Shown: positions 2,510 to 57,213 of the stretch, in pieces
Numbering within the stretch: position 1 is the first letter of the stretch
How the letters are laid out: every line of letters begins with the position of its first letter
Assembly (NCBI GenBank): GCA_964016885.1
Contig: OZ024743.1
Span: 264,492,001 to 264,556,000, forward strand
Source of the DNA: Eledone cirrhosa
Lineage: Eukaryota
Length of the DNA: 64,000 nt
Direction of reading: 5' to 3'
Notes under the pieces: generated by a model
Told to the model about the DNA's origin: nothing
The model's database searches: none
The model's input: the letters and a program-made list of their open reading frames with translations, nothing else
Position numbers and translations under genes: made by a program

Positions 2510-5500
2510 TTACAGTTTGTTCAAAAGAATGCTTTTGATGACAACATTCTTAGTTGACTGGGTAACCTTCAGAAACTCTCTGACATTTTCTTTTCGTTTT
2601 CCGCGGCTAAGGGCTACATACAGTTGACCGTCTTGGTATACAGGTCGTTCCAGATAAACCAAGACGTTCTCCATAGTTTGTCCTTGTGCTTTATGAATAG
2701 TCAGGGCGAAGCACGATTGAACTGGGAATTGGCTTCTTTGTAAAGGGATATCCTCACCTTCGGATAGATTAATTCTTATTCTAGTTATCATAACGATCTC
2801 ATTTCTGAAAGCAGCAGTGATGATTCTTGCTACTATGTGATTGTCGTGCAGTTCTTCCACGATCATGTGCGTTCCATTACAAAGCCTTGGAGGATTCAAG
2901 TTTCTCATAAGAATTATTGGCGATCCTTTTTTTCAATTCCAAGTTATGTGGTGGCAGTCCTGATAGTTCAACAGAATCAAGGAATTCAATCAGGAAATGA
3001 GTGGCATTGGCACCTTCACTCACAGAATTATAGGATCGGTACTCTTTTATGGTTCCAGGGAAGCGTCTGATAGAGGTGGAATTGATGCTTCTCATCATTT
3101 CATTGAGAGGTACTAAGATGCAATTGTTCGAAAACACTTCAGCTGGATTGTCGAATGAGGGGTAGATGAAATCAATACATTCTTCCATAGTTGTTGCTTC
3201 GAGAACCATTTCTTTTGGCAAAATAATTTCCTCATTTTGAGTTTGTTTAATCTTATCTTCTCCAATATCTAATAGGAACTGTGAATAGTCTCCTGCTCCC
3301 ACACCCAATCGCATGTTTGTCTTCAACTGAAATATTTAGAAGCTTCGCCATAAGTAGGATTGTTTAATGCATGCGTTTTCCACGTCCGCTTCATTTCCCC
3401 TTTTCACTACCGGAATAAGCTGACGGAAATCGCCACAGCAAATTGTCAAATTTCCACCGAATGCGTCATTGTTGTCGCATATGTCACGCAGAGTGAGGTC
3501 AACAGCTTCGAAGCTTTCCCTCCGAATTATAGGACACTCATCCCAAATAATCAGCCTTGTATGCTGGTTTGCCGTCTTTGAGTTTTTATCAATGCTGCAC
3601 AGACCATTTTCTTTCACTACTATCGGTATTTTGAACCTAGAATGCGCTGTTCTTCCACCAGGCATCAGTGTTGCAACAATGCCAGATGACGCAACAGCAA
3701 TAGCCACGTCACCGTTTCCCCTAACTTTTGAAAGAATGTAGTTAATCAGGAAGGTCTTTCCTGTTCCACCTGCAGCGTCAATGAAAATCAATGCAGATGT
3801 GTTCATCTCTAAACTGTTACAAACGAAGTCATACACGTGTTTTTGTTCACTAATCAATAGAGGCTCCGTCTCTTCTACAAATCGTCGCTGCTCTTTTCTG
3901 GTGTATTGCAATTCATGCAATAACTCCAAATTGCCAATATCCTGATTGGCAACAATATTATTTGGCCTTGGCAACTTAAAGTCAATAATACTTTTGCCCA
4001 GGTCGTTAAGTTTGTCTTCAAAATACAGAAGAAATTGATCATAATGTCTCTCGCTAATCAAAAGGCTAGAGTTTCTGGGAGCCCTTTTTTCTATTTGAAA
4101 GTAATCCTCAGACAGCGAATGCTCAAATCGAATCCATAAAGCACTGGAATTGTCAATTTCCGTATTTGTGAGGAGCATGATGAATAGATCTCTCACGGCT
4201 TTGGGAAGCCTTGTTCACTCAGCATCTTCCAAAGTCTGCTGCCAATGATCATCCGATTGAAGCAAACCTTTCTCTCTGCAGACGTCTTTGAATAATGGCA
4301 GGAGTTCTCCATCACACATTTTCAAAGATTTGAAGGATACTGGCCGTTTGACGTGATGCAGAAGGACTCTTAAATAATACAGGTCACCACTTCGTGGAGA
4401 AACAGTGTATACTCGTCCCAAAACGTTCGCCTCAAAAATCCCTGGATACTGCTCAACTGTTTTCCACACCTTTCTCCTTTCCCATCTCTTATTACTCCAA
4501 GTGTAAAACTTTGGGACATCGGCATAATACAATGTTTTTGCAAACGGATCGCGATCGCCAAGATCCATGAACTCAGTCAGAGTCGTCTTAGCCATGTTAT
4601 TGTTTACTTTAACAGCAGCATTGACCCGAAAGAATATTTGATTTTCCACAGGTAGATGAACTTGAGGGCGAACTACGGCCGGTTCTCTCATGAATTGGAA
4701 ATCCAAGTACCAAGGCAACATCTTCTGAAGAACCGATATATCTTCCTGTTAAATACTGTATTATCTCATCTTCCCTGTTCACTCCAAACATTGTCTGATC
4801 ACTGCCCTTCATCGTATATTTGATAACGTATTTGATCGATTTCATGGAAGAGCACATCTCTACGTTTAGGTGGTAATTGAACCACCCATTACGAAGTTAT
4901 ATTTCGGCTTCCCCTTCCTTCTTGGTGCCCCTCAAATCCTCCCATTCCTGGGGACCGTCTTCTGTACACGGGAAAATAGTCCTTTCCACAATGTATATTC
5001 ATTGAAAGGCTTAGGCTACCGCTTACTGCACGTTCCATCTTTCCAACACGGCGAATTGTTAGAGCAATTCGGACCGTGGATCATGAGCTTCAGCACCAAT
5101 TCATGACCCTCTGGATCTTTGTTTGGATCTGGTATTTCTGATTGAACAAATTTATCATATTCCTGCGGTCTGGGCTTGGAGGCTTCATTGAGCCATAGCA
5201 AACAGTGCACATGAGGAAGACCTCGCTTTTGATATTCGACAGTCAGCACGTAAGCAATGCACTTGCCAAATAGGCCATCTACTCCAGTAAGATACTTTCT
5301 TAACAGTTTTCGCTTCAGGTCAAATACGCTGGCAATTAAATCTGGCCTGTCATGTGGCTTCTGATTCAGGAATAGGTTTTGCCGGATTTCAGGCCAGTTT
5401 GGATTACATGTCATTGTGATGAAGAACGAAGGATTGCCGTACTTCCGTATGTACATCATGGCATCCTAGCATATCTCCATCATATATCTCGGTCCACCGA

Positions 5501-9284: not shown

Positions 9285-9555
9285 CCATATTTATTTTATT
9301 ATATATATTTCAAGGGTACCAAGACAACATTGGTACGCTTTTATAAAATAAAATACAAAGTTTGTTTTATAAATAGAGACGTGTCCATTAAAATCATACC
9401 TTATCGGTTGGAAATTCACAGTGAATTTCCAACCGATAAGGTATGATTTTCATGGGTACGTCACTATTTATGAAACAAACTTTGTAATTTATCTGATGAA
9501 AGTGTACCAATGTTGTCTTGGTACCCTTGAAATATATATAATAACATAAATATGG
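9285..9555. repeat. Fold-back palindrome of a PLE terminal repeat (135-bp arms)
   Basis: Symmetry centre at 9420 (GAAATTCAC-A-GTGAATTTC). The right arm is homologous to the PLE 3' end at ~43358-43480. Confidence 0.9.
9489..9544 (+). ncRNA. Type I hammerhead ribozyme
   Basis: TTAT-CTGATGA-AAG t GTACCAA tgttgtc TTGGTAC c CTT-GAAA-TATATA-TA-ATAA. The mirror copy in the left arm has lost CUGAUGA. Confidence 0.85.
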
Positions 9556-9746: not shown

Positions 9747-9875
9747 ATTGAGGACCGATTAAGTTAGATCGCAGATATAAAAGACAGCGAGAAGCGAAAA
9801 CCAACCAAACAGTGAGTGTGTTCTGTTATTAATTCTGGCAATATTACACAAATATGACCCTCCCCAAGTATAACA

Positions 9876-14070: not shown

Positions 14071-14950
14071 GTACAGAAATAATGTCACCGTATTCCTTAG
14101 TACTCTTGATATTTATTATTAGGAGGGAATTACTTTATGACACCACAGAATATCTTCGGTATACTAAAAACTAGCTGGACTCCATACAGCCGGTTATATC
14201 AGGTATTATATCTTCAATTATTCTTCTTACTAAATAATCTTATTTAATGTTGAAAGGGTGTTCGCAATAATTGTTAATTTAGGAGTAAAATTATTAGTAT
14301 GGATCTCCTTAGAATAAAACCTCTCGAATTGAAAATTATATGCGATTTGTATGGAGTATATATATATGTGTAAGTAGGTATACGAATTTGTTTATGCGTA
14401 TCTGTAAGAATGCATAAGTGTATATGCATATATACAAATATATCTGTTAGACACGCAGTGACTAACACCAGAATATTTTAAGTCTGCGTGTCTGTCTTAC
14501 ATATATGCGCAGCTTGTGAATAAACATTCAAGGGGTATCGCTGACGTGGTGATCCCTGCCAAACATCTTTTGTAATGTATCGTCTTATTGGCTTATTTCA
14601 TCGTTTTGTTGGCTAATCAACCAACGAGCGTAATTGTTGCTCAAAAGCATCCGTCACTTTGTTTCCACGTTTATTTATCGTTTCGCTTTCGGATCTTCCT
14701 CCAGTATTTCGTCGTTTATCATCAAAATATTTTTCTCGTTTTGATAAGTTATATTGTTAATTTATATATGATTTTTTAAATTTATATTAACTATTAAAAG
14801 TCTGAAAATATTTTTATACATCTTACAATAATATTTATAAGATCATTTATAAAATAACAATTATATAATCTAATTACAAAGATAATGTATTATTAATATA
14901 TATCATGTTTAACTAGAGTTATTACAAGCGTTGCCTTAAAAAGATATTAA

Positions 14951-15394
14951 ACTAGACCTGAAAAATGCGCAAGTTCAAAAGAGCCAGAGAATGTTATAAT
15001 AAACCTTCAAAAGTGTGGGACTAAAGTTGTTGCTCAAAAATATTGTAATCATTATCTATCGTACACACAGTGGCATCCTTTTATAAAAAAGAGACTCATA
15101 ACGAACTCAAGACGACACGATAATTATTTAAGTGAATTTATAATACAAAATTCGGTTTAAATGCATTTCGTATTAATTATCTAAACATCTAAAAAGAGGT
15201 ATTGAACATTAGCTTAAATCATAATCGTGTCGTCGTGAGTTCGTTATGAGTCTCTTTTTTATAAAAGGATGCCACAGAGTGTACGATAGATAATGATTAC
15301 AATATTTTTTAGCAACAACTCTAGCCCCACACTTTTGAAGGTTTATTATAACATTCTGTGGCACTTTTGAGCTTGCGCATTTTTCAGGTCTAGT
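14951..15394. repeat. Long imperfect inverted repeat (~175-bp arms, ~80-bp spacer)
   Basis: ACTAGACCTGAAAAATGCGCAAG... pairs with ...CTTGCGCATTTTTCAGGTCTAGT. The right arm runs into (TA)n. Confidence 0.9.
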
Positions 15395-15418
15395 ATATAT
15401 ATATATATATATATATAA

Positions 15419-15529
<111 letters not shown>

Positions 15530-16013
15530 AATATATAAATTTCGTATTTACAAAGAAATATGATTTTAGGAAGCGAACACCAGGGGGCAAACGCACTCTA
15601 GTGTTGTGCAGCAAAAGCAAGGGGGACAACCGTCTATGCTTTTCAGGCTTGACTGGCCACCGTAAGGACGATCCCTCCCACCTCTCTGCGACTGCTGGAC
15701 TTGAAAACAGCCGCGAACATATAGTTTTCTCGTCTGTGTAAATGAGGTGATTAATCTTATTTGCATATGAATCTGCATAAGCTGGTTCAACTTATAATGG
15801 AAAAGAAATAGGATTTCGCTTCAAGCATAGCTTTAATACAATTCTGCTGGACACACCAGAGGGCACTAGCCCCCGGTTTTCGCATAGACACGGCTTTGTA
15901 AAATCGTATTTCTTTCGAAATACGAAATTCTTATACATATTGTATAAAGCTATGCTTGAAGCGAAATCCTATTTCTTTTCTACTATAAGTTGAGCCAACT
16001 TATGTAGCTTCAT

Positions 16014-16101: not shown

Positions 16102-16158
16102 GGGTGCTCGTCCTGACGATGGCCAGTCAAGCCTGAAATGCATAGACGGTTGTCGCCC
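16102..16158 (+). ncRNA. Type I hammerhead ribozyme
   Basis: GGGTG ct CGTC-CTGACGA-tGGC cagtcaa GCCt-GAAA-TGCA-TA-GACG gttgt CGCCC. Palindromic stem III (ATGCAT) and an internal loop in stem I. Decayed mirror copy at 15631-15670. Confidence 0.9.
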
Positions 16159-16343
16159 TTGCTTCTGCTGGATAACAGTAGAGGGCGTTAAACCCCGGTG
16201 TTCGCATAGCTAAGGCTTCCTAAAATCGTATTTCGAAAGAAATACGAAATTTCTATACATATTGTATAAAGCTATACTTGAAGCGAAATCCTATTTCTTT
16301 TATATATAAATATATAAACACATACAATTATATATATAAATTC

Positions 16344-25548: not shown

Positions 25549-25903
<355 letters not shown>

Positions 25904-30415: not shown

Positions 30416-30967
30416 AGTTGCTATAAAATAACTTATAAAATCAGGTGAAGACACTAAGAGGCGGACAACGATTTTGCCAGCCGTCTAAAAGAAGGAGCTG
30501 AATGAAATACATTTTGACCATGTAAACAGACATTTCGAACTTACGAAATGCTGAGGGAATAGATTTTTATAAGCTATTTTATTATAACTAACTATAATTG
30601 CAGTTATTTTCAGATGAGTATCTTACAGCTTCTACAAATGTATTCCCTAACCGCATCGTCAGTTCAAAAGTTCGAGTTTCACACACAAAGTTTGTATACA
30701 TTATTTTCAAAAGGTATTTCATTCAGCTCCTTAATTTAGACGGTAAGATCTTGTTGGATGTCTCTTGGCTCAGTCATGAAAGCACTCAGCCGATAGTTAA
30801 TAGATAGAGAGTACGATTCCTCGTAGCATCCACTGACACTGTTGTTTTTCATCTCTAAACGTTTTTATCCGATTTTTATAAGCTATTTTATAGCAACTGA
30901 GTGCGGTTTAGTATCCTACACCCCGAATAAATTTATTCCCTCACAATTTCGTAAGTTCCAAAGTTAG

Positions 30968-30970: not shown

Positions 30971-31056
<86 letters not shown>

Positions 31057-31064
31057 GTGTGTGT

Positions 31065-31119
<55 letters not shown>

Positions 31120-31159
31120 TATGTATATATATGGAAGTGGTTACACAACAGTTAGTTCA

Positions 31160-31209
31160 CCATGCCGGGAACAATTGTTTCACCTTAGCGGATCTTCAGC
31201 TCGTAATGG
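31160..31209 (-). ncRNA. Type I hammerhead ribozyme (left arm)
   Basis: CGAG-CTGAAGA-tCC gctaa GGt-GAAA-CAATTG-TT-CCCG. One mismatch in stem I. Confidence 0.8.
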
Positions 31210-31321
31210 ACATGGTTATACGGAACAGGAAGGACAACCGTACGAACGCGCATGCGTAGAAATGATCATTTCTACGCATGCGCCTTCTTACTGTTGTCCT
31301 TCCTGTTCCGTATAACCATGT

Positions 31322-31371
31322 CCATTACGAGCTGAGGATCCGCTAAGGTGAAACAATTGTTCTCGGTATGG
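31322..31371 (+). ncRNA. Type I hammerhead ribozyme (right arm)
   Basis: CCAT ta CGAG-CTGAGGA-tCC gctaa GGt-GAAA-CAATTG-TT-CTCG gt ATGG. Confidence 0.85.
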
Positions 31372-31397
31372 TGAACTAACTGATGTGTAACCACTTC

Positions 31398-31429
<32 letters not shown>

Positions 31430-31430
31430 C

Positions 31431-32549
<1,119 letters not shown>

Positions 32550-36229: not shown

Positions 36230-36849
36230 ATTTAATAAAACGGAACTGAAAATAGTTATTATAATGCCTAAGTAAATAATTAAATTACAATTTTACCCTG
36301 CATAAAAGGCAGTTGGTAATTACTTTTACTACCCTCCACTCCCATATTTTTGAAATTTACATATTTCCTAGTCAATATGCACACTCATATTATCATGTCA
36401 TTTTTTAAGCATATGTCTGTTAATGTCTGGATTTGCAGAAGCACTACATTTTGATATACTGTTTTTAATACCAATTCTGCTTTGCTATTGGATGTGAAAT
36501 GCGATGTATTAAATGGTATGGTATGAACCTATTCTATGGTATGGAATTATCTCTTGATGTAATATACTTGAGAATTCAAACTATATATAAATTCCTGAAG
36601 GTATGTTTAGCGAGGAACATATAACTCGTATGTATCGTGGTATGGCGCACAACTCTACATTGAAACACATGTAGAATTGAAATAATGTTTTAAGTATAGC
36701 TTTGTTATTCTCTCTATATAAAATAAATGTTGAGCTCTGCACCCGTAGCCTGAAACTCTACAACAAAATCTCCAGCGACAGGGAAAATCATCAGCCGAAT
36801 TTCATGATAACGTAACAAGGTAGTTTAATGTCATACCCAGGACAGAAAT

Positions 36850-39800
36850 ATGGAGAGTCGATCTAACAGTACTAGGGTTAGAGCCCCTAATTACAGAGCA
36901 GCCTGGTCGTTATGACTCTGCTGGCTTAGAGCCACAGAGAGGGCCAGTGGATGATGGATCAGCTGTCTCTGAGACAAATATAAAGAATGCAGTTTTGTCC
37001 TGCAGAAGAGCAATCACAATGGGCACTTTGAATGTGAGGACTATTCGGACGCTGGAGAAGAGAGAGGAGTTGGGACATCTGTTCGAGGAGAGTGGTATAC
37101 AGATACTTGCGATCCAAGAACACAGGATTCTACACGATGAGCCCGTGAGGAGTGTGATGATCGGGAAGAAGAGCCAGCTCATCACTACATCAGCAGTGAA
37201 GAACACAACAAATGCTGCAGTAAGAGGAGTGGGTTTTGTGTTCAGTGCAAAAACCAATCTGTTGGTGAGGGGAATAATGCCTATCTCCCCGCGAGTGTTG
37301 AGGGTGACCTTCAATGGAAAACCAAGACTGACAGTCATCTCAGCCTATAGAACAACCAAGGGGGACAGTGATGTGAATGCGGAAGAGTTCCACGAGGAGG
37401 TGTGTAGAGCTGTCAACACCACTCAGGCACACAATATCCTGCTTGTTTTGGGGGACTTCAATGCACATCTGAGTAAGGAGGGCAGTGAAGATCCTTGCTG
37501 GTACTTCCATAACATCACCAACCGAAAAGGAAGACTACTGAGAGACACCCTGCTGGAGGCGAACTTGATGGCGACCAACCTAAGGTTTAGGAAGAATCTG
37601 GGGAAGATGTGGACCTACATCTCAGATATGCAGCTGTCCAAGTCCCAGATTGATTTCATTCTGGTGAGGAAAAAGTGGCGGAATAGTGTTCTGAACACGG
37701 AACCATACAGCTATTTCAGTACACTGGGTAGTGACCACCGGCTTGTTATGAGTGAGGTCCGCGTGAGCTTAAGAAAGAGTAAGGCTCAGCCCTGGAGAAC
37801 AATCTAATACTGGGGAGCTTTCAAGGAAGATGATAAGCTACAGGAGAGGTTCACAGTGGAAGTGAGAAACAGGTTTAGTGCTCTGTGTGGAGAGTCAGAG
37901 GAGAGAGAGATTGGATGGACTGAGGAGAGTGTGACGAGGAGGTACGGGGACTTCACCAATGCAGTGGCGGAAGCAAGTGAAATCCTGGTGCCGGGGAAAA
38001 AGAACAAAGGGAAGCACGTCAGCTCTGCAAACCCAAAAGTGTGTGCAGCCAGAGAACACCTGAAAGCTGCCAGGGACCAATTCTATGCTGATTCTACGGA
38101 GGAGAGGATGGATACTGTGGAGGTGATGAGGGAAGAGCTCTGTGCCGCTTACACTGAGGTCAGAGAGGAGGCACTGATATAGAAGATCAGAAGCGTGGAG
38201 AGAGCGGTTGACAGATCTGGATGTAAGGAGAGCTGGATGATCATCAACGAGATCACAGGGAGGAAGAGAAGGTGTTCGAATCAGATCCAGGGAACGGGGC
38301 CCGAGGATAGGAAGAGGAAATGGCTAGACCATTTTAGGACCCTACTAGGAGAGCCACCCTCCACAGCCCAGAGCACTGGGGAGATCAGGCGGCTGTTTGA
38401 GGAACTGGATGTTGAGACAGAGCCCTTCACCAGAGAGGAGCTTCAGAGAGCCAAGAAGAAGATCAAGGAGGACAAGGCTCATGGAGAAGTTGGAGTGGCA
38501 TCAGAGGTGATGAAGAGGTGTGATTTTGATGATATCATCCTGGGGTTCTGTAACGGGGCACAGGAGAAAGGAGTTGCCCCGAATCAGTGGAGGATCAGTA
38601 ACATCGTCCCAGTGCCAAAGAAGGGAGATCTCTCTAACACCAACAACTACCGGGGGATCTCACTGACGTCACTTGTGGCAAAGAGCCTCAACAGGATGAT
38701 TCTTAACAGGATCCAGCCTGAGATGGAGGAGAAGCTCAGGGACAACCAGAACGGCTTCAGAGAGGGTAGATCAACCACCAGTCACATCCTGATGCTGAGG
38801 AGGATATTAGAGGGAGCTAGAGCAAAGTGCCTTCCTGCGGTCATGGTTTTCATTGACTTTAGGAAGGCCTTTGATTCTGTGGACCGTTACTGCCTGATGA
38901 AGATCTTACAGGCTTATGGAATCCCCAAGAGGATAGTGGACCTGATATTACTGCTCTAAACCAACACCAAAGCCCAAGTCATTACACCTGATGGGATGAC
39001 AGAGTTCTTTGTGATACTGGCTGGAGTACTCCAGCGAGATACATTGGCTCCCTACCTTTTTATCATCGTAGTGGACTATTGTATGCGCCTTGCACTGGAG
39101 AAACACCAGGACTTTGGCTTTACTGTAGCACCGGCTCAGAGCAGGAGAGTTAGGGCGAAAAAGGTATCGGATGCTGAATTTGCCGACGACATAGTTTTGG
39201 TGACAAATACAGTGAAGGAGGCAGAGGATTTGATGCGGGATGTTGAGACTGTGTCGATGAGTGTGGGGCTGATAATGAATGAGACTAAAACAAAATATCT
39301 GGTAGAGAATGTTGAGAAGCCACAGAGGATCACTAATGTAGGCGGGAAGCCGCTGGAATTGGTTGAGGACTTCCTGTATCTGGGAGCAAAGATTGGGAAT
39401 ACGGAAGATGATCTGGTTGAGAGGAAGAGCAAGGCCTGGGGGCGTGCCACAGCTTGAGATCGGTGTGGAAGTCGGACCTTCGTAGAGACCTGAAAATCCG
39501 CCTCTTCATTGCTGTAGTGGAGTCTGTGCTGCTGTATGGGTCTGAGACTTGGACAAAGACCAAGAAACTCACTCAGATGGTGGATGGGTGCTACACGAGA
39601 ATGCTGAGGATGGCTCTGAACATTAATCAGTATACACTGAGGATGAAAAACTCAGAGCTGTATGGGAGCATCCCAAAAGTCAGCTCAAAAGTGACACAGA
39701 GGAGACTGAGGTTAGCTGGATATGCTCACCGACATCCAGAGTTGACATTGCACTCAGTACTCCTTTGGGAGCCCCTACATGGACACACTAGAAGAGGAAG

Positions 39801-39934
39801 ACCAAGGTTAACGTATGTTGATGCCCTAAGGACAGACACTGGTCTGTTGGAGATGCAGGACATGGCAGCGATAATGAGGGACAGAGACCGCCGGAGAGAA
39901 CTCGTGTATGGATCTTGGGAATTTTACCCGCCTT

Positions 39935-39937
<3 letters not shown>
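36850..39937 (+). mobile_element. Near full-length RTE-type LINE (APE endonuclease + RT), inactivated
   Basis: GTLNVRT, LAIQEHR, LGDFNAH, SDH; PVPKKGDL..NYRGISL, QNGFREGRST, FIDFRKAFDS, GVLQRDTLAP, FADD, FLYLG. Stops at 37805, 38180 and 38957; frameshift near 39450. 5' boundary approximate. Confidence 0.93.
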
Positions 39938-40005
<68 letters not shown>

Positions 40006-43100: not shown

Positions 43101-43506
43101 GTTCTCTCCCCTCTCTCTATCTCTATATTTATCTCTCTTGATTTTTTCTCTCTGTCTGGTGGTTTGATATCTTTCTGTTGTTTTTCTCTGTTTTCTTTTT
43201 TTCTTTTTTTTTTCTTCTTTTTCTTTATTTATCTCTCCGTTTCTTTCTCCACTTTTCTCTCTCTCCGTCTTTTTCCTTCTCCTTAACACGACGACTTACT
43301 AAAATAAACAAACCCACTATACTGATGTCTTCCAAAAGTAACGGTTGCATTTTGAAAGGGTACGTCAATGTTTATTTATAAAACTGGTATATATTGTATT
43401 TTGTCTGATGAAGGCATACCATAATTTAACATGGTATCCTTGAAATATGTATAATAAAATAGATATGGTTTTATAAATATAAATATATTTTCCATTTGTT
43501 AATATC

Positions 43507-43510
<4 letters not shown>
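40188..43510 (+). mobile_element. 5'-truncated AT-rich Penelope-like element (Naiad-like)
   Basis: PVRLIAPSKSDLG, QLDIANYYSSI, FDITMGS*DSAQVTDLVG, GLYRDD, VNFLDVTLNL, CNCRNKSNCPLNNNCL, YVGSTSTEFKCRFNNH, CDLCIEE, CRH. The ORF ends at 42076 and the 3' UTR carries an HHR. Confidence 0.92.
43397..43461 (+). ncRNA. Type I hammerhead ribozyme in PLE terminal repeat
   Basis: TATTTTGT-CTGATGA-AGG c ATACCAT aatttaac ATGGTAT c CTT-GAAA-TATGTA-TA-ATAAAATA. Confidence 0.88.
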
Positions 43511-43540
<30 letters not shown>

Positions 43541-43542
<2 letters not shown>

Positions 43543-46500
43543 GAAAAATTTGAACAGGGACAAAACAGAGAGGCAGTACAATAAATGTTTATTAATTTCA
43601 CGCTCAGGAGAGTGGGGCGTAGGTGGGGTACGACGTTTCGGGCATAAGCCCTTCCTCAGGTGAGAAGTGTGTGGGAACAGAGTTCAAAAGGTGTGTGGGG
43701 GAGTGGTGGAGAGACATATAGCGAAAGGAAACGGTGCGAATGAAAAATTAACAAATAAAGATAAAAATAAAAATAAAGCATGATCAAAATACAAGGAATG
43801 AGAAAATTTAAAAATAAAGGCATGATCAAAATAAACTGAAATTAAAAGGGGGTTAAACAGGTGGTGGAAGGGTGTGGGGTGAGTAGGGGTGGTGGCGGGT
43901 GGAGTGGGGAGACGGAGACGGGGTGTCCGAGTGGGGAGGGCTGAAGGTGGTGTGTGTATGTAGGTGTGCGTGTGTGTGTGTGTATGTGAAAGTAAGGGTT
44001 GGGGGAAGAACAGGGTTGCATGTTCAGGAAGAGGTGTGTGTGGGGGTGTTTTTGTGGGTCAGAGTGTCTGTGCGTGTGTGGATAGGGGGTGGGGGGAGAG
44101 GAATCAGGAGGCTGAGGGTGTAAATATGTGGTGGGAAGCACGTGTGTGAGAGGTTTAAGCGTGTTGTGGGTGTGGGTGGCGTGCGGAGAAAAAGATTTGT
44201 TTGGGGTGTGTGTGTGGGTGAGTTATATAGGTGATGACGTAAGAGGATGGTTGAAAAGTTGGTAAGTTCCAAGGATGTTTGGAGGATTGGTTATAAGTCA
44301 ATTTCTGCGTGTGGGTAATCCATGAAGCGGTGGTCGGAAGAGGAGAGATGTGGGGTGCGCGCGCAACAGGAAGTGGTCAGCAGTGGGAGTGCTGTGGTCT
44401 TTTGGTGCTGGGAGGTGGTCAGAAGGGCATAGCAGCAGTCGGTGGAATGGTAAGGGGGCGAGAATGGGTAGGTGAGAAAGTTGGAGTGAGGAGGGTGTGT
44501 GTGTGTGTGTGTGTATTAGTAGGGGTGTTAGTGGGATGAGTGAGTGTGGAGCGGGGGTGTGGGTGGAGCGGGGAGAGAAGGGTGTGTGTGGTTCTATGGA
44601 GGGAGTGTTGTGTACTGGTGTGTGTGTAGTTTGGTGAAGAGGTGTTAGTGGGTGTTAGTATACGGGAGGTGAGGAGGGGTTGAATGCAGGTGTGAGTGGG
44701 GGTTAGTGGTGGTAGGGTGTGTAGAGTTGGTGGTGTACGAGGGTGTGTGGGTACGTGTGCGTGGGGTTGGGGGGTGTTAGTGATGTTAGTTGCGTGTGGG
44801 GTGGGTGGTGTAAGTGGGTGCGTGTGTGCGTGTGATGAGGGGGAGGAGGAGAAGAGGGGAGGGAAGGGATGTTAGTATGTTAGTTGGGGAAGGGTGGTCA
44901 GATGAGGGGTGGAGTGGAGGTGTTAGTATTGTTAGTGTAGGGTGGGCGGTGAAAAGGAGGGGTGTGTTAGTGGGGGATAAGTGTGGGTTGTCGAACGCTA
45001 AAGGAATAAGGGTGGGGAGTTCAGGCCGGGGGAAGTGTGGGTCTGTAAGATGAAGATAGTTCGTTGTTCGACCGTAAGGCGATGGGCGGGTGTTCCGTGG
45101 CACTGGAGTAGGCCACAGACTGTGAGATGGCGTGCGGAGTCTCCAGGGCCACCAAAGTGGCGGGCGATGGGGGAACTGCCCCCGAGACGAATATCCCGGA
45201 GGTGCTCCGTGACTCGGTCCGCCAGGCGACGTCCCGTCTGTCCGACATAAGTCCGTAGACTAGGTTGGAGGAGGTGCAGCGGAAGGCATGCCGGACCGAG
45301 AGAGAGTGGCCGTTGGGACCCTGGAAGGTGGTGGTGTTGGTGATGTGGGGACAGGTGTTGCAGTGGGGCCTTGAACAGGGAAAGGAACCGGGAGGGGGGA
45401 ACAGAGCGTGGGTTGGGGGGTAGGGAGCTGTGGACGAGGAGGGTGCGGAGATTGCGTGCGCGTTTGAAGGAGGGGAGTGGTGGGGTTGGGAAGATGTGGG
45501 AGGTGGAGGGGTCGGACTGGAGGCGTCGGAAGAGGCGGCGGATGGTGCGGTGGAGGAGTAAGGTGGAGGGGTGGTAGGTGATGGGGAAGGGTAGACGGTG
45601 GGTTGGTGTGCGGTGGCGTGGGGTGAGGGTGGTGGAGCGGGGGATAGCACGGGCGCGGGTGAGAGCGGTGTAGACGAGAGAGAGGGGTAACCTCTGCGGA
45701 TGAAATGGCTGACTAGGGAAAGGGCCTGGGACTCGAAGTCAGCATCACGGCTACAGAGGCGGCGGATCCTGAGAAGTTGGGAGTAGGGAATGGAGTGTTT
45801 AGTGTGGGTGGGTTGGGAAGAGGTGAAGTCGAGGTAAGAGTGGGAGTCGGTGGGTTTGAAGAAGGCGGAGGTGACGAGGGAGTGGTGGGAGGGGTCGAAG
45901 GCGACGGAGATGTCTAAGAAGTGGACGTGGGTGGTGGAGATAGTGGTGGTGAAGTGGAGGGAGGGGTGGAAGGAGCAGAAGAAGGAGAGAAAGGAGTCGA
46001 GCTGTTCTCGGGTGAGGGTCGTGGCTCTGATACAGTCGTCAATGTAACGACCGTAGAGTTCGAGCGTGGGGCCGGTGTACTGGGCAAAGATTTGGGCCTC
46101 AACATGGCCAACAAAAAGGTTGGCATAGTTCGGGCCCATTCTTGTGCCCATGGCTACCCCCGTAACCTGTTGGTAAAACTCACCCGAGAAGGAGAAACAA
46201 TTTAGGCTGAGGACCAGCTCGGCGAGGCGAAGGGGGGTGGGGGTGGAGGGAATGGGGGAGGGGAGAAGGTCGAGGTAGAGTTTGAGGGCGCGAAGGCCGT
46301 CGGCGTGGGGGATGACTGTATAGAGGGACTTGATGTCTAGGGTGATGAGGAAGGGCTGTGGGCCGGGTAGTTAGGTGAAGGAGTCGAAAAGGCGCAGGGC
46401 GTGGTTCGTGTCGGAGATGTGGGAGGGGAGGGTGGTGACAAGGGGGGCGAGGAGGGAGTCGAGAAAGGCGGAGATGAGTTCGGTGGGGCAGTTGCAAGCG

Positions 46501-47885
46501 GAGACGATGTGGTGGCCGGGGTTGTCGGGTTTGTGGAGTTTGGGGAGGAAGTAGATGGTGGGGATACGGGGGTGCGGACGATGAGGTGGGAAGTGATGGG
46601 GGAGAGGAGGGAGGAGGCGATAAGGTCTTTGATGGTGGAGGAGACTTGTTGTTGGTAGAGGGGGTGGGATCGGAGGGTAGAGGGCGGTAAAAGAGGGGGT
46701 TACAGAGCTGCCTGAGGGCTTCGGCCGTGTAGAGGTCCGCGCGCCATACCACTACGGCGCCTCCCTTGTCCGCCGGTTTGATGACGATGTCATCTCGGCT
46801 GCGGAGGGAGCGGAGAGCGAGGAGTTCGCCCCGTGAGATATTGTGCCGTTTGGAACGGTGGCGGAAGTCGAAACGATTTACTGCGCTACGGCTGGCATCG
46901 ACGAAGGCGTCCAGGGTGCTAAATTGCCCTGGGGCCGGCGTCCAAGAAGATGGTCGTCGGCCCAGGGCGAGAAACGGGTCTGGGGCGTCCGGAGCCGTTG
47001 GCGTTCGGCCGAAATGTGCTTGTAGCATAGTGCGTCGCACGAATCGCTCGACTTCCGTTCGGGTGCGGAACTCGTCGCTGTGCGGAGTGTGGGGTATGAA
47101 GCGAAGGCCTCTACTAAGGAGTGAGCACTCAGGTGAGGAGAGGGGGAGATCAGGGGGTACGGTGACACCAAGGGGGTTGGGGGGTTGGGGGTGGAGGGGG
47201 AGATCGGGTAGGGGGTCGAGGGAGAGGTGGAGAGTGGTGGGCGTATGGGGATGGGCGGGTGGTGGTGGATGGGGGTGGGTAGAAGTGAGTGTAGCTTGCG
47301 GGCTTTGGTGGAGCTGAGGAACGAGAAGAGGTTGTGGTTGAGGTTGTGGATGAAGGAGAGGATGGCTTGGGCGAGGAGGGGGTGGCAGGTGGAGTAAAGG
47401 CGGAAGGGGGTGGGGGTCAGTTGGTGGTCAAGTAGGCGGAGGGAGGAATGGGAGGCGCGGATGGAGTTGCGCTCCAGGGGGCGTGAGGATCGGGTGAGGA
47501 TACGTTGCGTGGAGGGGCAAGCGGCGGGGGAGGGGTAGAAGTGTAGACGGAAGCCGAGGGGGATAAGGTGGAGGCGGAGGCAGTGGCTGAGGAAATGGAT
47601 GTGGCTGTAGTGCCGGGTTTTGGCGAAGAGAAGGTAGGAGAGTTGAAGGGCGGAGGGGAGATAGCAGGGTGGGAGGAGGGGGTGAGGAAAAGTTCGAGGC
47701 GATTGTGTAGTTGGTGGAGAAAGGATCTCAGGTTGGGCATGATGGGCGTTGGGTGAAAGCAGGGGGAGGGATGAGACGGCAGGGGTGTGAAGCGGGGTGG
47801 AGTGAACGAAGGGGTGAGTACGAAGGATAGGCAGAGACGGGGAAGGGAAATGAAACAGAAAAACGTAGGGAGGGGGGAGTAAACA
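43541..47885 (-). mobile_element. Near full-length GC-rich Penelope-like element (RT + GIY-YIG), frameshifted
   Basis: Probable ATG at 47740; KPADKGGAVVVW, GVAMGTRMGPNYANLFVG, YGRYIDDC, FLDISV, KPTDSHSYL, CSRPHCNTC, NLVY..YVGQTGRRLADRVTEH. ~1.4-kb C/A-rich 3' UTR, HHR and AATAAA near the 3' end. Confidence 0.92.
43629..43662 (-). ncRNA. Minimal type I hammerhead ribozyme of PLE
   Basis: CAC-CTGAGGA-a GGGC ttat GCCC-GAAA-CG-TC-GTA. Palindromic ACGT stem III. Confidence 0.85.
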
Positions 47886-47914
47886 CACATATATATATAT
47901 GTATATATATATAT

Positions 47915-48941
47915 GGTATCAGACAAGAGGGACTAGATATCCAACTAGCCTACTCAGGACATTTTCTACGCAGACAGCTAACCAAAAGACACTCCACCAG
48001 ACACGACAGCCGCTGCAAACTAGCCAACTGCCCCATCAACGACACAGACCTATGCCACCAGGCTTACGTCGTATACAGATTAGAGTGCGACAAATGCAGC
48101 AATTTCTGCATAGGTAGCACCTCCAGACCTCTTCACATAAGAATAAAAGAACACCTGAATACAAACGCTTCCTCATTTAAGAAACAGCTAGTGAAATGCA
48201 AAAACACCGACAAAAGCATAATAGTTCGGATAGAAGCTAAGGAAAGAAACCTCGGCAATCTTAGAATTAAATAAGCACTGATTATAGACAAAACGCAACC
48301 ACCAATCAATAACAGACTAGAACTCAACACCCTATATTTAACATGATAGAGCACCTAGCCCCACACTTACACCTCCACATACACTCTCCCTGACACACAC
48401 ACGCACACGCACGCACATACACACAGACTTACACCTCCACTTATTCTCTCTCACACACACACATACACAGACAAAGACCAGTTTTAACATAACAGAGCAT
48501 CTAGCCCCCACATTCACATATAGACATATCCTCTCACACTCACACACACACGCACACGCACACATATGCTTACACCTTCACAAATTCTCCCACACACACT
48601 TAAACATACATGTCCAAATCCTTTTTAAAGGGAGACAACTCTTTATCCACCTAACCTTCATTTTTTTACATTAGAAATAGAATGGAATTTCTATACCATT
48701 TCCTGTCAGCATGATTTGGTAAGCTAATTAGAAACTGGATTAACCCTTTACTTCCCTCCGAAGAAGAGATATTATCTCTAAAATTAAGGATATTCAAATA
48801 AATTTAAGGTAAAATACTAATTTTCAGCAATATCTTTTGCATTTGTATTTATATTCTATATCCATACCTGCATTGTTTTGGCCTTCTAACTCCAAATGTT
48901 TATACCTCATTACGCAATGCTTCAAGTAAACTAGAATTTCC

Positions 48942-50230: not shown

Positions 50231-50236
<6 letters not shown>

Positions 50237-51288
50237 ATAGTTGGGGAGCGTCATATTTGAGTAATATTGCCAGAATTAATAACAGAACACACTCAATGTT
50301 TGGTTGGTTTTCGCTTCTCACTTCTGTGTCTTTTATATCGGTAGTCTAACTTACTCGGTCCTCAATGTAATAGGAAATTATCATATGTAAGGTGAACCAC
50401 CGGATAAACTGTAAAACTAGAAACGTAGTCTATAGCATAAGATGTACAGAGGGTACTTGCAGAAACATGACAACAACATACATAGGTGAGACAGCTCGTA
50501 GCATAGGTGAAAGGATAGACCAACACTGGGGGGAACTAAAAGGACGAAAAAACGGGTCAGTACTATACGAACATACTAGACAACAACATGACGGTAACAT
50601 AGACAACATAGAAATTAGAATAATATCTAAACATAGAAATGACCCAGCAGATAGGCAAATCAGAGAGGCCAGTGAAATAGAAATTAGATGACTAAGGCTA
50701 AACAGAAAGATTGAATGAAATAACAACAACACCCAAACAAACAACACTGACCTAAGAGAAGTATAAATAAGTAAATAAAATAAAATAAATAAATAAATAA
50801 ATACATACACAAGCACAATAACAACAAGCACATAAACACACACTAGTCACCCATCCCACAGCAAACAAAACGCTATACACACACGCAAACGCATGCGCAA
50901 AGAAGACAAAATAAAATAAACAAACAAGCAAATAAATAAATTAATATATAGACAGACTGAATAAAAATGGCGTAGAATACAACAGGAGGAAAATATAACA
51001 CCACTGACGATGTTGCAGATGTGCAACGAAAGATTTATGAAAAACTATATATATGTGTTTGTGTCTATATTGTATCTGTATTATTTTTGACCGTCGGTCT
51101 GTCAATGGCAACATTGAGGACCGAGTAAGTTAGACTACCGATATAAAAAACACAGAAGCGAGAAGCGAAATCCAACCAAACAGTGAGTGTGTTCTGTTAT
51201 TAATTCTGGCAATATTACACAAATATGACGCTCCCAGAGTATAACAATATTTGTTTCGACACACGATTTCATATAAAAAACCTCGCAA

Positions 51289-51291
<3 letters not shown>
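50231..51291 (+). mobile_element. PLE 3' fragment (GIY-YIG) with a 5' inverted terminal repeat
   Basis: CKTRNVVYSIRC..YIGETARSIGERIDQH..RQIREASEI. 50231-50368 is the reverse complement of 51111-51248. HHR at 51001. Confidence 0.88.
51001..51040 (+). ncRNA. Minimal type I hammerhead ribozyme (weakened stems I and III)
   Basis: CCA-CTGACGA-t GTTGCA gatg TGCAAC-GAAA-GATT-TA-TGA. Confidence 0.75.
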
Positions 51292-52953: not shown

Positions 52954-53107
52954 ATCGACGGCTAATTCTGGACAGAATTAGCCGTCGAAACGGCTTGAGC
53001 TCAGTCGTCGGGGTCGTACTCGTTCCTATTACCCACTCTACTACCCTAAGTATTGAGTACTTTGGTGCGTTATGGTCCATCTGGTTCCTTACCACATTTC
53101 CTTCGTT
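52954..53107 (+). mobile_element. Second copy of the 25605-25797 family (hairpin + GAAAC + tail)
   Basis: TCGACGGCTAATTCT ggac AGAATTAGCCGTCGAAAC... Highly similar to 25666-25797 and ends at the same base before (TA)n. Confidence 0.8.
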
Positions 53108-56625: not shown

Positions 56626-56628
<3 letters not shown>

Positions 56629-57205
56629 TCCTTACGATTCGAACACATGCATGTTTATATTAGTGTTCATCTTTCTTGTTTATTCAATTATATTGTACGG
56701 CTCGGAAAAGCTTTTTCTTAGAGCTATTTAATTGTAAGAGACTACCCTGAGTTCTTAACTCAATATGTATTTGACGGCTCCATCATGTAGAGCTAATTTC
56801 TATTGTCCTGTCAGCCAGACTGCTATTTTTAGCGGCAGGGAATTTCGAGACAAGCTGGGTTACGAATGACACGGGCGATAATTCATATCATACACCATTC
56901 ATTCTCAAATATTTTTTAGAAGTGAAAAGATCACTAATTTATCAACAACTACTGATGAACAGAGAAACGTGAGAACTTCACTTAATAAGTCGTTGTGAAA
57001 GAGTCTCCAACACTGTCTAGTTGTTACCAGGCATTTTTGTCCAATATAGGTATGTTATTTTTCTTAATTTTTCTTAATTTAATATTTAAAGTTAAGGATA
57101 ACAAACTATATTGCTGTGATTAGTATTTTTTCACCCTAGTAAATTTGGTCCTTACGATTCGAACACATGTATGTTTATATTAGTGTTCATCTTTCTTGTT
57201 TATTC

Positions 57206-57213
<8 letters not shown>
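56626..57213 (+). mobile_element. Retrozyme-like monomer (520 bp) with 68-bp terminal direct redundancy
   Basis: TGGTCCTTACGATTCGAACACATG...TATTCAATTATAT at 56626 and 57146 (1 mismatch). Internal HHR, (TA)n flanks. Confidence 0.82.
56944..57025 (+). ncRNA. Type I hammerhead ribozyme
   Basis: AACAACTA-CTGATGA-ACAG..TTGT-GAAA-gAGT ctccaac ACTg-TC-TAGTTGTT. 8-bp stem I, GUC triplet, one G.G mismatch in stem III. Confidence 0.85.

Follow-up and report, generated by a model that had tools for sequence, protein, structure and literature searches.

A decaying hammerhead palindrome in Eledone cirrhosa, probably a head-to-head pseudo-LTR pair from one Penelope-like-element insertion

Results

A 270-bp palindrome between microsatellite tracts

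The window, i.e. the whole stretch of 64,000 nt analysed here (Eledone cirrhosa, contig OZ024743.1), looks like repeat-rich animal DNA, and all positions refer to its first letter. At 31131-31400 it contains a palindrome of 270 bp, which has its centre between 31265 and 31266 and zero spacer (Table 1). Matching letters are found in 127 of 135 mirror pairs, and the eight mismatches lie at 31284, 31288, 31292, 31336, 31363, 31367, 31383 and 31398 in right-arm numbering. The longest perfect mirror run comprises 43 pairs, compared to at most 8 in shuffled sequences (n = 300). A near-perfect fold-back of this size in (TA)n had been described in an earlier note made from the sequence alone, and its coordinates, centre, pairing and the (TA)n on both sides all hold. 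No target-site duplication is readable at 31131-31400, since the insertion sits between (TA)n tracts. Immediately to the right, 68-bp inverted repeats (31431-31498 and 32482-32549) enclose a (TA)n tract of about 1 kb and represent a microsatellite-associated element.

Table 1. Positions of the palindrome, its parts and related elements in the window (RT, reverse transcriptase; PLE, Penelope-like element).
Feature	Position	Strand	Basis or remark
Left target, (TA)n/(TG)n	30972..31132		Flank repeat content
Left arm: inverted 5'-truncated copy of element 3' end (inverted pseudo-LTR)	31133..31265	-	Mirror of 31266-31398; blastn 94.7% over 132 nt
Mirror hammerhead, left arm	31166..31203	-	Core CUGAAGA; A·C mismatch in helix I at 31168
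Fold-back centre GAAATGA/TCATTTC	31259..31272		Longer family members probably have an imperfect inverted repeat there
Right arm: direct 5'-truncated copy of element 3' end, no tail	31266..31398	+	Family depth rising toward 3' end; stops at one of two family 3' ends
Minimal type-I hammerhead, right arm	31328..31365	+	Descriptor match and published PLE consensus
Right target, (TA)n	31398..31429		Flank repeat content
Second hammerhead palindrome, unrelated family: 271 bp, 135-bp arms, 1-nt spacer	9285-9555	both	Hammerhead per arm, left core broken
Third fold-back family, two copies	25605-25796, 52955-53106		93% alike over 152 nt; both end in (TA)n
Broken PLE-type ORF: RT, CxxxCxxC linker, GIY-YIG-like end	43540-47920	-	Sequence reading
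Inverted 136-bp repeats around 742-bp body, ~40 extra nt on one side before (TA)n	50233-51291 (repeats 50233-50368/51111-51246)		Self-comparison

Minimal hammerhead motifs in both arms

In the right-arm hammerhead, helix I is formed by 31328-31 and 31362-65 (4 bp), the core comprises CUGAGGA (31332-38) and GAAA (31350-53), and helix II consists of two C-G pairs only (31340-41 with 31347-48). Helix III has 2 bp around AAUU and lies within an 8-nt palindrome (31353-60), for which a self-duplex, i.e. a dimer, is predicted at -6.4 kcal/mol. The palindromic helix III/loop 3 is followed, as an NUH triplet, by GUU, and the cut is predicted after 31361. A CUGANGA and GAAA core with C3-G8 is present in both arms, and helix I has the shortness of type-I motifs (4-5 bp), with 4 bp in the right arm and three of four pairs remaining in the left arm, where the second pair, beside the cut site, is A·C. 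The extra H between positions 9 and 10.1 is provided by U31339, which may instead face U31349. A G10.1-C11.1 pair closing a long helix II is absent; in both arms, U and U flank the two C-G pairs. The published consensus of minimal PLE hammerheads reads CUGANGAH, G..C, GAAAN, palindrome and NUH (supplement of PMC4209133), and the right-arm motif fits it except at G10.1-C11.1, a pair described as highly conserved in PLE motifs.

Scanning of the window with a strict descriptor, which requires helix I to have 4 bp and helix III to be palindromic, returned 5 matches, while 60 block shuffles gave a mean of 0.05 and a maximum of 1. The right arm passes this descriptor, and the left arm fails owing to 31168, where the second pair of helix I has become A·C. 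Rfam at the gathering score yielded zero matches anywhere in the 64-kb window, and the hammerhead call therefore rests on the descriptor and the published consensus. In three of the five descriptor matches (cores at 16113, 31332 and 56324, + strand), the base of helix II is U/U; the respective hammerheads belong to apparently unrelated families, which would share a possible lineage-wide variant of helix II. The motif at 16113 lies between direct repeats of 148 bp (15842-15988 and 16163-16309, 84% alike), a possible remnant of a head-to-tail non-autonomous unit.

The earlier note had proposed intact-core hammerheads on both strands. The CUGANGA and GAAA letters are indeed kept in both arms, but helix I of the left arm carries the A·C mismatch. 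As also proposed, the cores differ only at N7 (G in the right arm, A in the left arm), all other core letters being identical. This difference is weak evidence of selection at the locus, since N7 is G/A polymorphic family-wide and a pair of the left helix I is broken.

Predicted folding and the ambisense idea

The full palindrome folded as RNA is a hairpin of -236 kcal/mol by prediction. In agreement with the earlier note, read-through in either direction would give one sense hammerhead inside this long hairpin, and the hairpin would mask it, as forcing the hammerhead fold costs 76.8 kcal/mol when computed for the + strand. For a single arm alone, the hammerhead fold is predicted at 10.5 kcal/mol above the minimum and hence would not be preferred. 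Any read-through RNA of the palindrome would be an inert long hairpin. Minimal PLE hammerheads are reported to be inactive in vitro as monomers and weak as dimers (PMC4209133), and a related PLE hammerhead required its protein for activity (PMC11167929).

The further possibility of an ambisense unit is not supported. According to PMC4209133, minimal motifs with a palindromic helix III need a same-strand partner, i.e. a dimer. A helix III of 2 bp with a palindromic loop would have this need here as well, but the two hammerheads of the locus are mutually antisense. Ambisense viroid-like circular RNAs carry a ribozyme, e.g. a hammerhead, in each polarity and adopt a rod-like fold. The two ribozymes of the palindrome, in contrast, are one sequence mirrored in chromosomal DNA, and its transcript would be cut at most once without giving a unit-length circle. 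Rather than a working ribozyme per polarity and unit-length monomers, folding predicts one masked hammerhead per strand, with a mismatched helix I in the left arm. Non-LTR retrozymes resemble the locus in being non-coding, in having type-I hammerheads and in being probably PLE-derived, but they consist of units arranged head to tail, and a monomer able to circularise is released by their hammerheads, which lie on the same strand (PMC7229834; bioRxiv 10.64898/2026.07.22.740005). The locus lacks such a tandem with at least two same-strand hammerheads; being head-to-head with one hammerhead per strand, it is not a retrozyme tandem and would not be an ambisense circle.

A high-copy, 5'-truncated repeat family

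Nine sequencing runs from three studies were considered, six of which contain part of the stretch. None of these six is an RNA run, which has no bearing on expression. The right arm was compared at 80% likeness with runs X1, X4, X7 and X8, leaving out X2, X3, X5, X6 (share 0.08) and X9. It matched 2606 contig records in X1, 11149 reads in X7 and 10471 reads in X8 and belongs to a high-copy repeat family. In X4, which carries another organism label, 5 contigs matched, 4 of them being 95-99% alike. Summed contig depth in X1, which is no copy number and to whose gradient sister subfamilies diverging upstream of 31344 contribute a part, was 771 in the first bin and climbed to 1.05 million around 31370. 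The last bin exceeded the first one 194-fold, and the peak exceeded the depth 35 nt in 10-fold. When the first eight bins were compared at equal distances from both edges, the 3' side had a 194- to 10-fold higher depth, and thus the slope is no edge effect. The sister subfamilies, detected by loose ends before 31344 and 31328, keep the hammerhead and have different sequences upstream. The family is accordingly 5'-truncated, high in copy number and fixed at its 3' end or ends, as in PLE insertions.

Common variants of the family, among 40 of 63 variant rows, concern loop 1, N7, loop 2, loop 3 and CpG sites in helix I, and none concern the other core letters or the two U's, which suggests that the hammerhead motif was conserved in the parent element. 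One G of helix II varied in less than 6% of reads. N7 was A in 1947 of 5710 first-mate-on-+ reads of X7, i.e. it is G/A polymorphic across the family. Elsewhere in the 64-kb window, no other copies of the arm, the upstream motif or the tail motif were found, and metagenome scans with the hammerhead motif and with the 3'-end motif gave 0 loci each. An RT/GIY-YIG ORF linked to the family was not found in the window, and the PLE-type ORF fragments present there are of other families.

Two family 3' ends were detected. At the first, (CT)n follows behind 31398 (11 contigs; 444 reads in X7 and 531 in X8), and at the second a constant extension of at least 30 nt follows behind 31399 (45 contigs; 3616 reads in X7 and 3911 in X8; agreement 0.86-0.89). 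Both arms of the palindrome stop at the proximal end, and neither has the constant extension, i.e. the putative tail. In PLEs, an optional tail of 30-40 bp lies between two RT start sites (PMC8557442, PMC11167929), and the two family 3' ends, one with constant extension, fit this arrangement. Microsatellite or AT-rich targets, typical of PLE insertions, are represented by (TA)n at the locus and by (CT)n and (TA)n loose ends in the family.

Upstream, 42 contigs of X1 extend before 31269 in non-mirror sequence, and the first record of X1 has 86 non-mirror upstream letters without a strand-change joint. The consensus of these loose ends (42 contigs, agreement only 0.6) ends in GAAGTGACCG, which is identical at 6 of 7 positions to the seven letters left of the centre (P ~0.001 at equal base frequencies). 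Because of this fit, longer members probably already have an imperfect inverted repeat at the fold-back site. Coverage of 31266-68 appears low: assuming 31269-70 to be as deep as 31274, the remainder is none in X1 and ~15 and ~21 read-places in X7 and X8, respectively; the hard upper bound in X1 is 771 versus about 2100. No strand-change joints were seen in X1, X4, X7 and X8, a result of little weight as these data types are largely blind to them. Graph contigs such as those of X1 end at palindromes and cannot count fold-backs, and the reads of X7 and X8 run from 31277 to 31355, with GCATGC and AATT sites at these boundaries; these two look like two-enzyme (reduced-representation) libraries, which would miss most fold-backs.

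Independent drift of the two arms

Compared with the family, it is the right arm that deviates at 31284, 31288, 31292 and 31383, where its letters are rare and those of the left arm are the majority ones. At 31363 and 31367, which have no common family variant, the left arm is the changed one. At five other common variable sites (31321, 31327, 31356, 31388 and 31392) the arms agree, and for this reason the letters point to arms of one subfamily, which would later have drifted independently by about 3% each. This drift includes the change damaging the left helix I. A two-template origin of the arms, prompted by the N7 polymorphism, was not supported, given the agreement at the five sites. The right-arm changes at 31284, 31288 and 31292 are transversions at the G of CpG with a spacing of 4 nt, where family decay usually is G to A; they represent either a clustered mutation event or a base-calling error.

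This odd clustering would also suit an assembly or library artefact, i.e. a fold-back chimera, and palindromes in long microsatellites are hard to assemble. However, the arms differ at eight places, the two flanks are different unique sequences and the symmetry ends at the element boundary. Moreover, X1 contains 0.72 of the sampled words, although X1 may be the source sample and hence not independent. We regard an artefact as extremely unlikely.

Other fold-backs in the window

Fold-backs are common in the window, belong to several unrelated families and are head-to-head in some cases. The palindrome at 9285-9555 has a tail of ~33 nt beyond the mirror on its right arm only (to 9589). A single-armed relative at 43330-43508 has the same ~33-nt tail before (TA)n, and its start is at most 7 nt away from the same centre position. 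The element at 50233-51291, a third copy of whose repeat lies at 9747-9875, looks like a textbook insertion of a PLE with inverted pseudo-LTRs (pLTRs), without a hammerhead; its body gave no useful match within the window. In the family at 25605-25796 and 52955-53106, the two copies fold back near the same site, but their centres differ and the mirrors extend over 54 versus 16 bp; no CUGANGA core was seen here by motif scan. Arms of ~131-136 bp recur in four unrelated elements (31131-31400, 9285-9555, 50233-50368/51111-51246 and 30481-30743), which may reflect chance or a length rule of the mechanism, the sample being small and including counter-examples of ~210 and 54 bp. An imperfect palindrome of 459 bp (14944-15402; 87%) has arms of ~210 bp and an asymmetric centre, and adjoins (TA)n.

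The window also contains remains of coding elements. The broken RT at 45240-46367, within the PLE-type ORF, resembles RT/HTH_animal/GIY-YIG clusters (best score 0.96) and has a weak Pfam RT match, and two GIY-YIG fragments have scores below the Pfam cut-off. A hammerhead-like motif at 43659 lies 1.3 kb downstream of the broken RT on the same strand, ~120 nt before (TA)n; a window search for its upstream pLTR partner gave low-complexity matches only. Other occupants are a decayed Helitron-like Rep/PIF1 helicase (2510-5465, - strand; PF05970, E 5e-57), a decayed endonuclease-RT LINE (36824-40002, + strand; PF00078, E 4e-17) and a microsatellite-associated element with 67-bp direct repeats ~520 bp apart, which abut (TA)n (56627-56693 and 57147-57213).

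Discussion

The palindrome at 31131-31400 is most probably a head-to-head pair of pLTRs made during one PLE-driven insertion and now decaying. Its arms meet by their 5' ends, and the 3' end of the element faces both flanks; an inverted copy joined head-to-head at a palindrome, as known from PLEs, is what the locus presents. It works like a PLE inverted-pLTR insertion, and its family, to which no ORF was linked and which departs from one pair of the hammerhead consensus, is a putative rather than a strict PLE member.

Alternatively, the palindrome could postdate the insertion and stem from template switching or DNA repair within the unstable (TA)n, by which a single-armed copy would have been duplicated in inverted orientation, or it could be what a deletion left of a longer insertion of the order inverted pLTR, body, pLTR. 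Long (TA)n tracts surround the locus, the centre coincides with a small inverted repeat, and the window contains a longer insertion with inverted repeats, body and tail at 50233-51291. A small inverted repeat favours fold-back at the DNA level. However, the mirror stops at the 3' boundary of the element on both sides without reaching the unique flank, the same layout occurs in several unrelated families within 64 kb, and the family tail on one arm only of the 9285-9555 palindrome is unexpected from simple mirror duplication. We consider such a later origin unlikely.

The earlier note had left it between a propagating unit and a one-off integration product. The data lean clearly to the latter, as the members of the high-copy family are mostly 5'-shorter, some of them continue upstream in non-mirror sequence, and there is little depth at 31266-68. 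Few copies appear to carry the same symmetry centre, the search proposed for this question, although the run data are largely blind to other fold-backs. The whole palindrome being the mobile unit, i.e. a MITE-like ambisense non-autonomous PLE derivative, in which the transcript of either strand would contain the PLE cis signals and give rise to a new palindromic insertion, is very unlikely in our judgement. Both arms do end at the same point, several palindromes of the window have arms of 131-136 bp, and near-full arms are not rare, as 3763 reads of X7 and 3264 of X8 begin at 31277, 11 nt from the centre; most fold-backs would also escape the run data. Against this stand the apparently low depth over 31266-68, the 42 contigs crossing the site in non-mirror sequence and, weakly in view of the blindness of the data, the lack of strand-change joints in the four runs. 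Furthermore, the predicted read-through hairpin would bury both the hammerhead and the 3' end, the arms drifted independently, and the third fold-back family of the window has different centres in its two copies. Equally little credit can be given to a variant in which a non-autonomous PLE lineage transposes the palindrome, transcribed from either side or outward from the centre, with a fixed centre upon re-insertion and an ultra-short U/U hammerhead working only when the PLE protein opens the hairpin. If this were true, the arms of 131-136 bp in unrelated families would be a size rule for such units. A literature search outside subscription journals and repeat databases found no self-propagating stand-alone hammerhead palindromes.

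For the favoured head-to-head pLTR pair, we envisage a stump-sized insertion of a high-copy PLE family, either autonomous or a non-autonomous rider on one. The GIY-YIG endonuclease of the PLE would have nicked (TA)n, and its RT would have begun at the proximal internal start site. The last ~133 template bases, i.e. the hammerhead-bearing pLTR end, would have been copied once per orientation, with the two copies joined head-to-head at a short inverted repeat pre-existing in the longer element. The mirror arm may have been made in the same insertion by fold-back self-priming at the small palindrome, or alternatively by reverse transcription that started from both target strands, the products then annealing at this palindrome. 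Two antisense cDNAs from opposite nicks could presumably meet only via an inverted repeat in the template (after PMC11167929), which would place the centre where it is observed. Self-priming and two-strand reverse transcription are inseparable on present data. Under both routes the second hammerhead would be a by-product of duplicating one, and the centre would be set by template sequence, so that a shared centre alone would be no proof of propagation; shared arm-specific variants would be.

Opposite-strand minimal hammerheads 100-700 bp apart are known from PLEs of Schistosoma mansoni and Cotesia bracovirus (PMC4209133, Cervera and de la Pena 2014), and the same paper describes most PLE hammerhead motifs as solitary remains of truncated PLEs. 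The present pair is alike in comprising minimal type-I motifs on opposite strands with an extra H after A9 and a palindromic helix III, and its cores are spaced by 133 bp. Unlike the hammerheads of that paper, which have a long helix II with G10.1-C11.1, those of the palindrome have a helix II of 2 bp with U and U at its base. The published pairs are not described as spacer-less palindromes, whereas 31131-31400 is one.

Head-to-head is the most frequent arrangement of inverted pLTRs, with palindromes at the junctions, and was attributed to self-priming on antisense template (PMC3846280, Arkhipova et al. 2013). Endonuclease-bearing PLEs further share with the locus the (TA)n target, the unreadable target-site duplication and perhaps, in the family, the optional one-sided tail of 30-40 bp, to which the constant extension would correspond (PMC3846280; PMC8557442, Craig et al. 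2021). The arms are of the order of a pLTR in length, measuring ~133 bp versus 181-218 bp. In those elements, the inverted pairs are followed by an ORF and a further pLTR, whereas the pair at 31131-31400 stands alone and its family has no tied ORF.

In vitro, both target strands are cut by the Poseidon-Ac protein, which also extends them, beginning at the same RT start sites (PMC11167929, Frangieh et al. 2024). This element resembles the family in its AT-rich targets and in having two 3' ends, which are set by a pair of internal RT start sites located downstream of the hammerhead. However, palindromic products are not reported in that work, and the Poseidon-Ac hammerhead overlaps the ORF start, whereas ATGs in the arm of the palindrome have no open frame behind them.

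The palindrome is real and ordinary for PLE-rich genomes, and its layout has already been described for this element class; taken alone, this decaying retroelement stump carries little weight. Such stumps are nevertheless the smallest complete record of a PLE insertion, with the outer ends less than 300 bp apart and the inner junction between them, and the Eledone cirrhosa genome seems rich in them. As a class, they bear on the origin of PLE inverted repeats, either by antisense self-priming (PMC3846280) or by two-target-strand reverse transcription (PMC11167929), a question which these papers call unresolved. Of interest as a small hammerhead variant is the family-wide helix II of 2 bp with its U/U base, which may already be in print. 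According to the review PMC6765202, small PLE hammerhead variants were treated by Lunse et al. in 2016.
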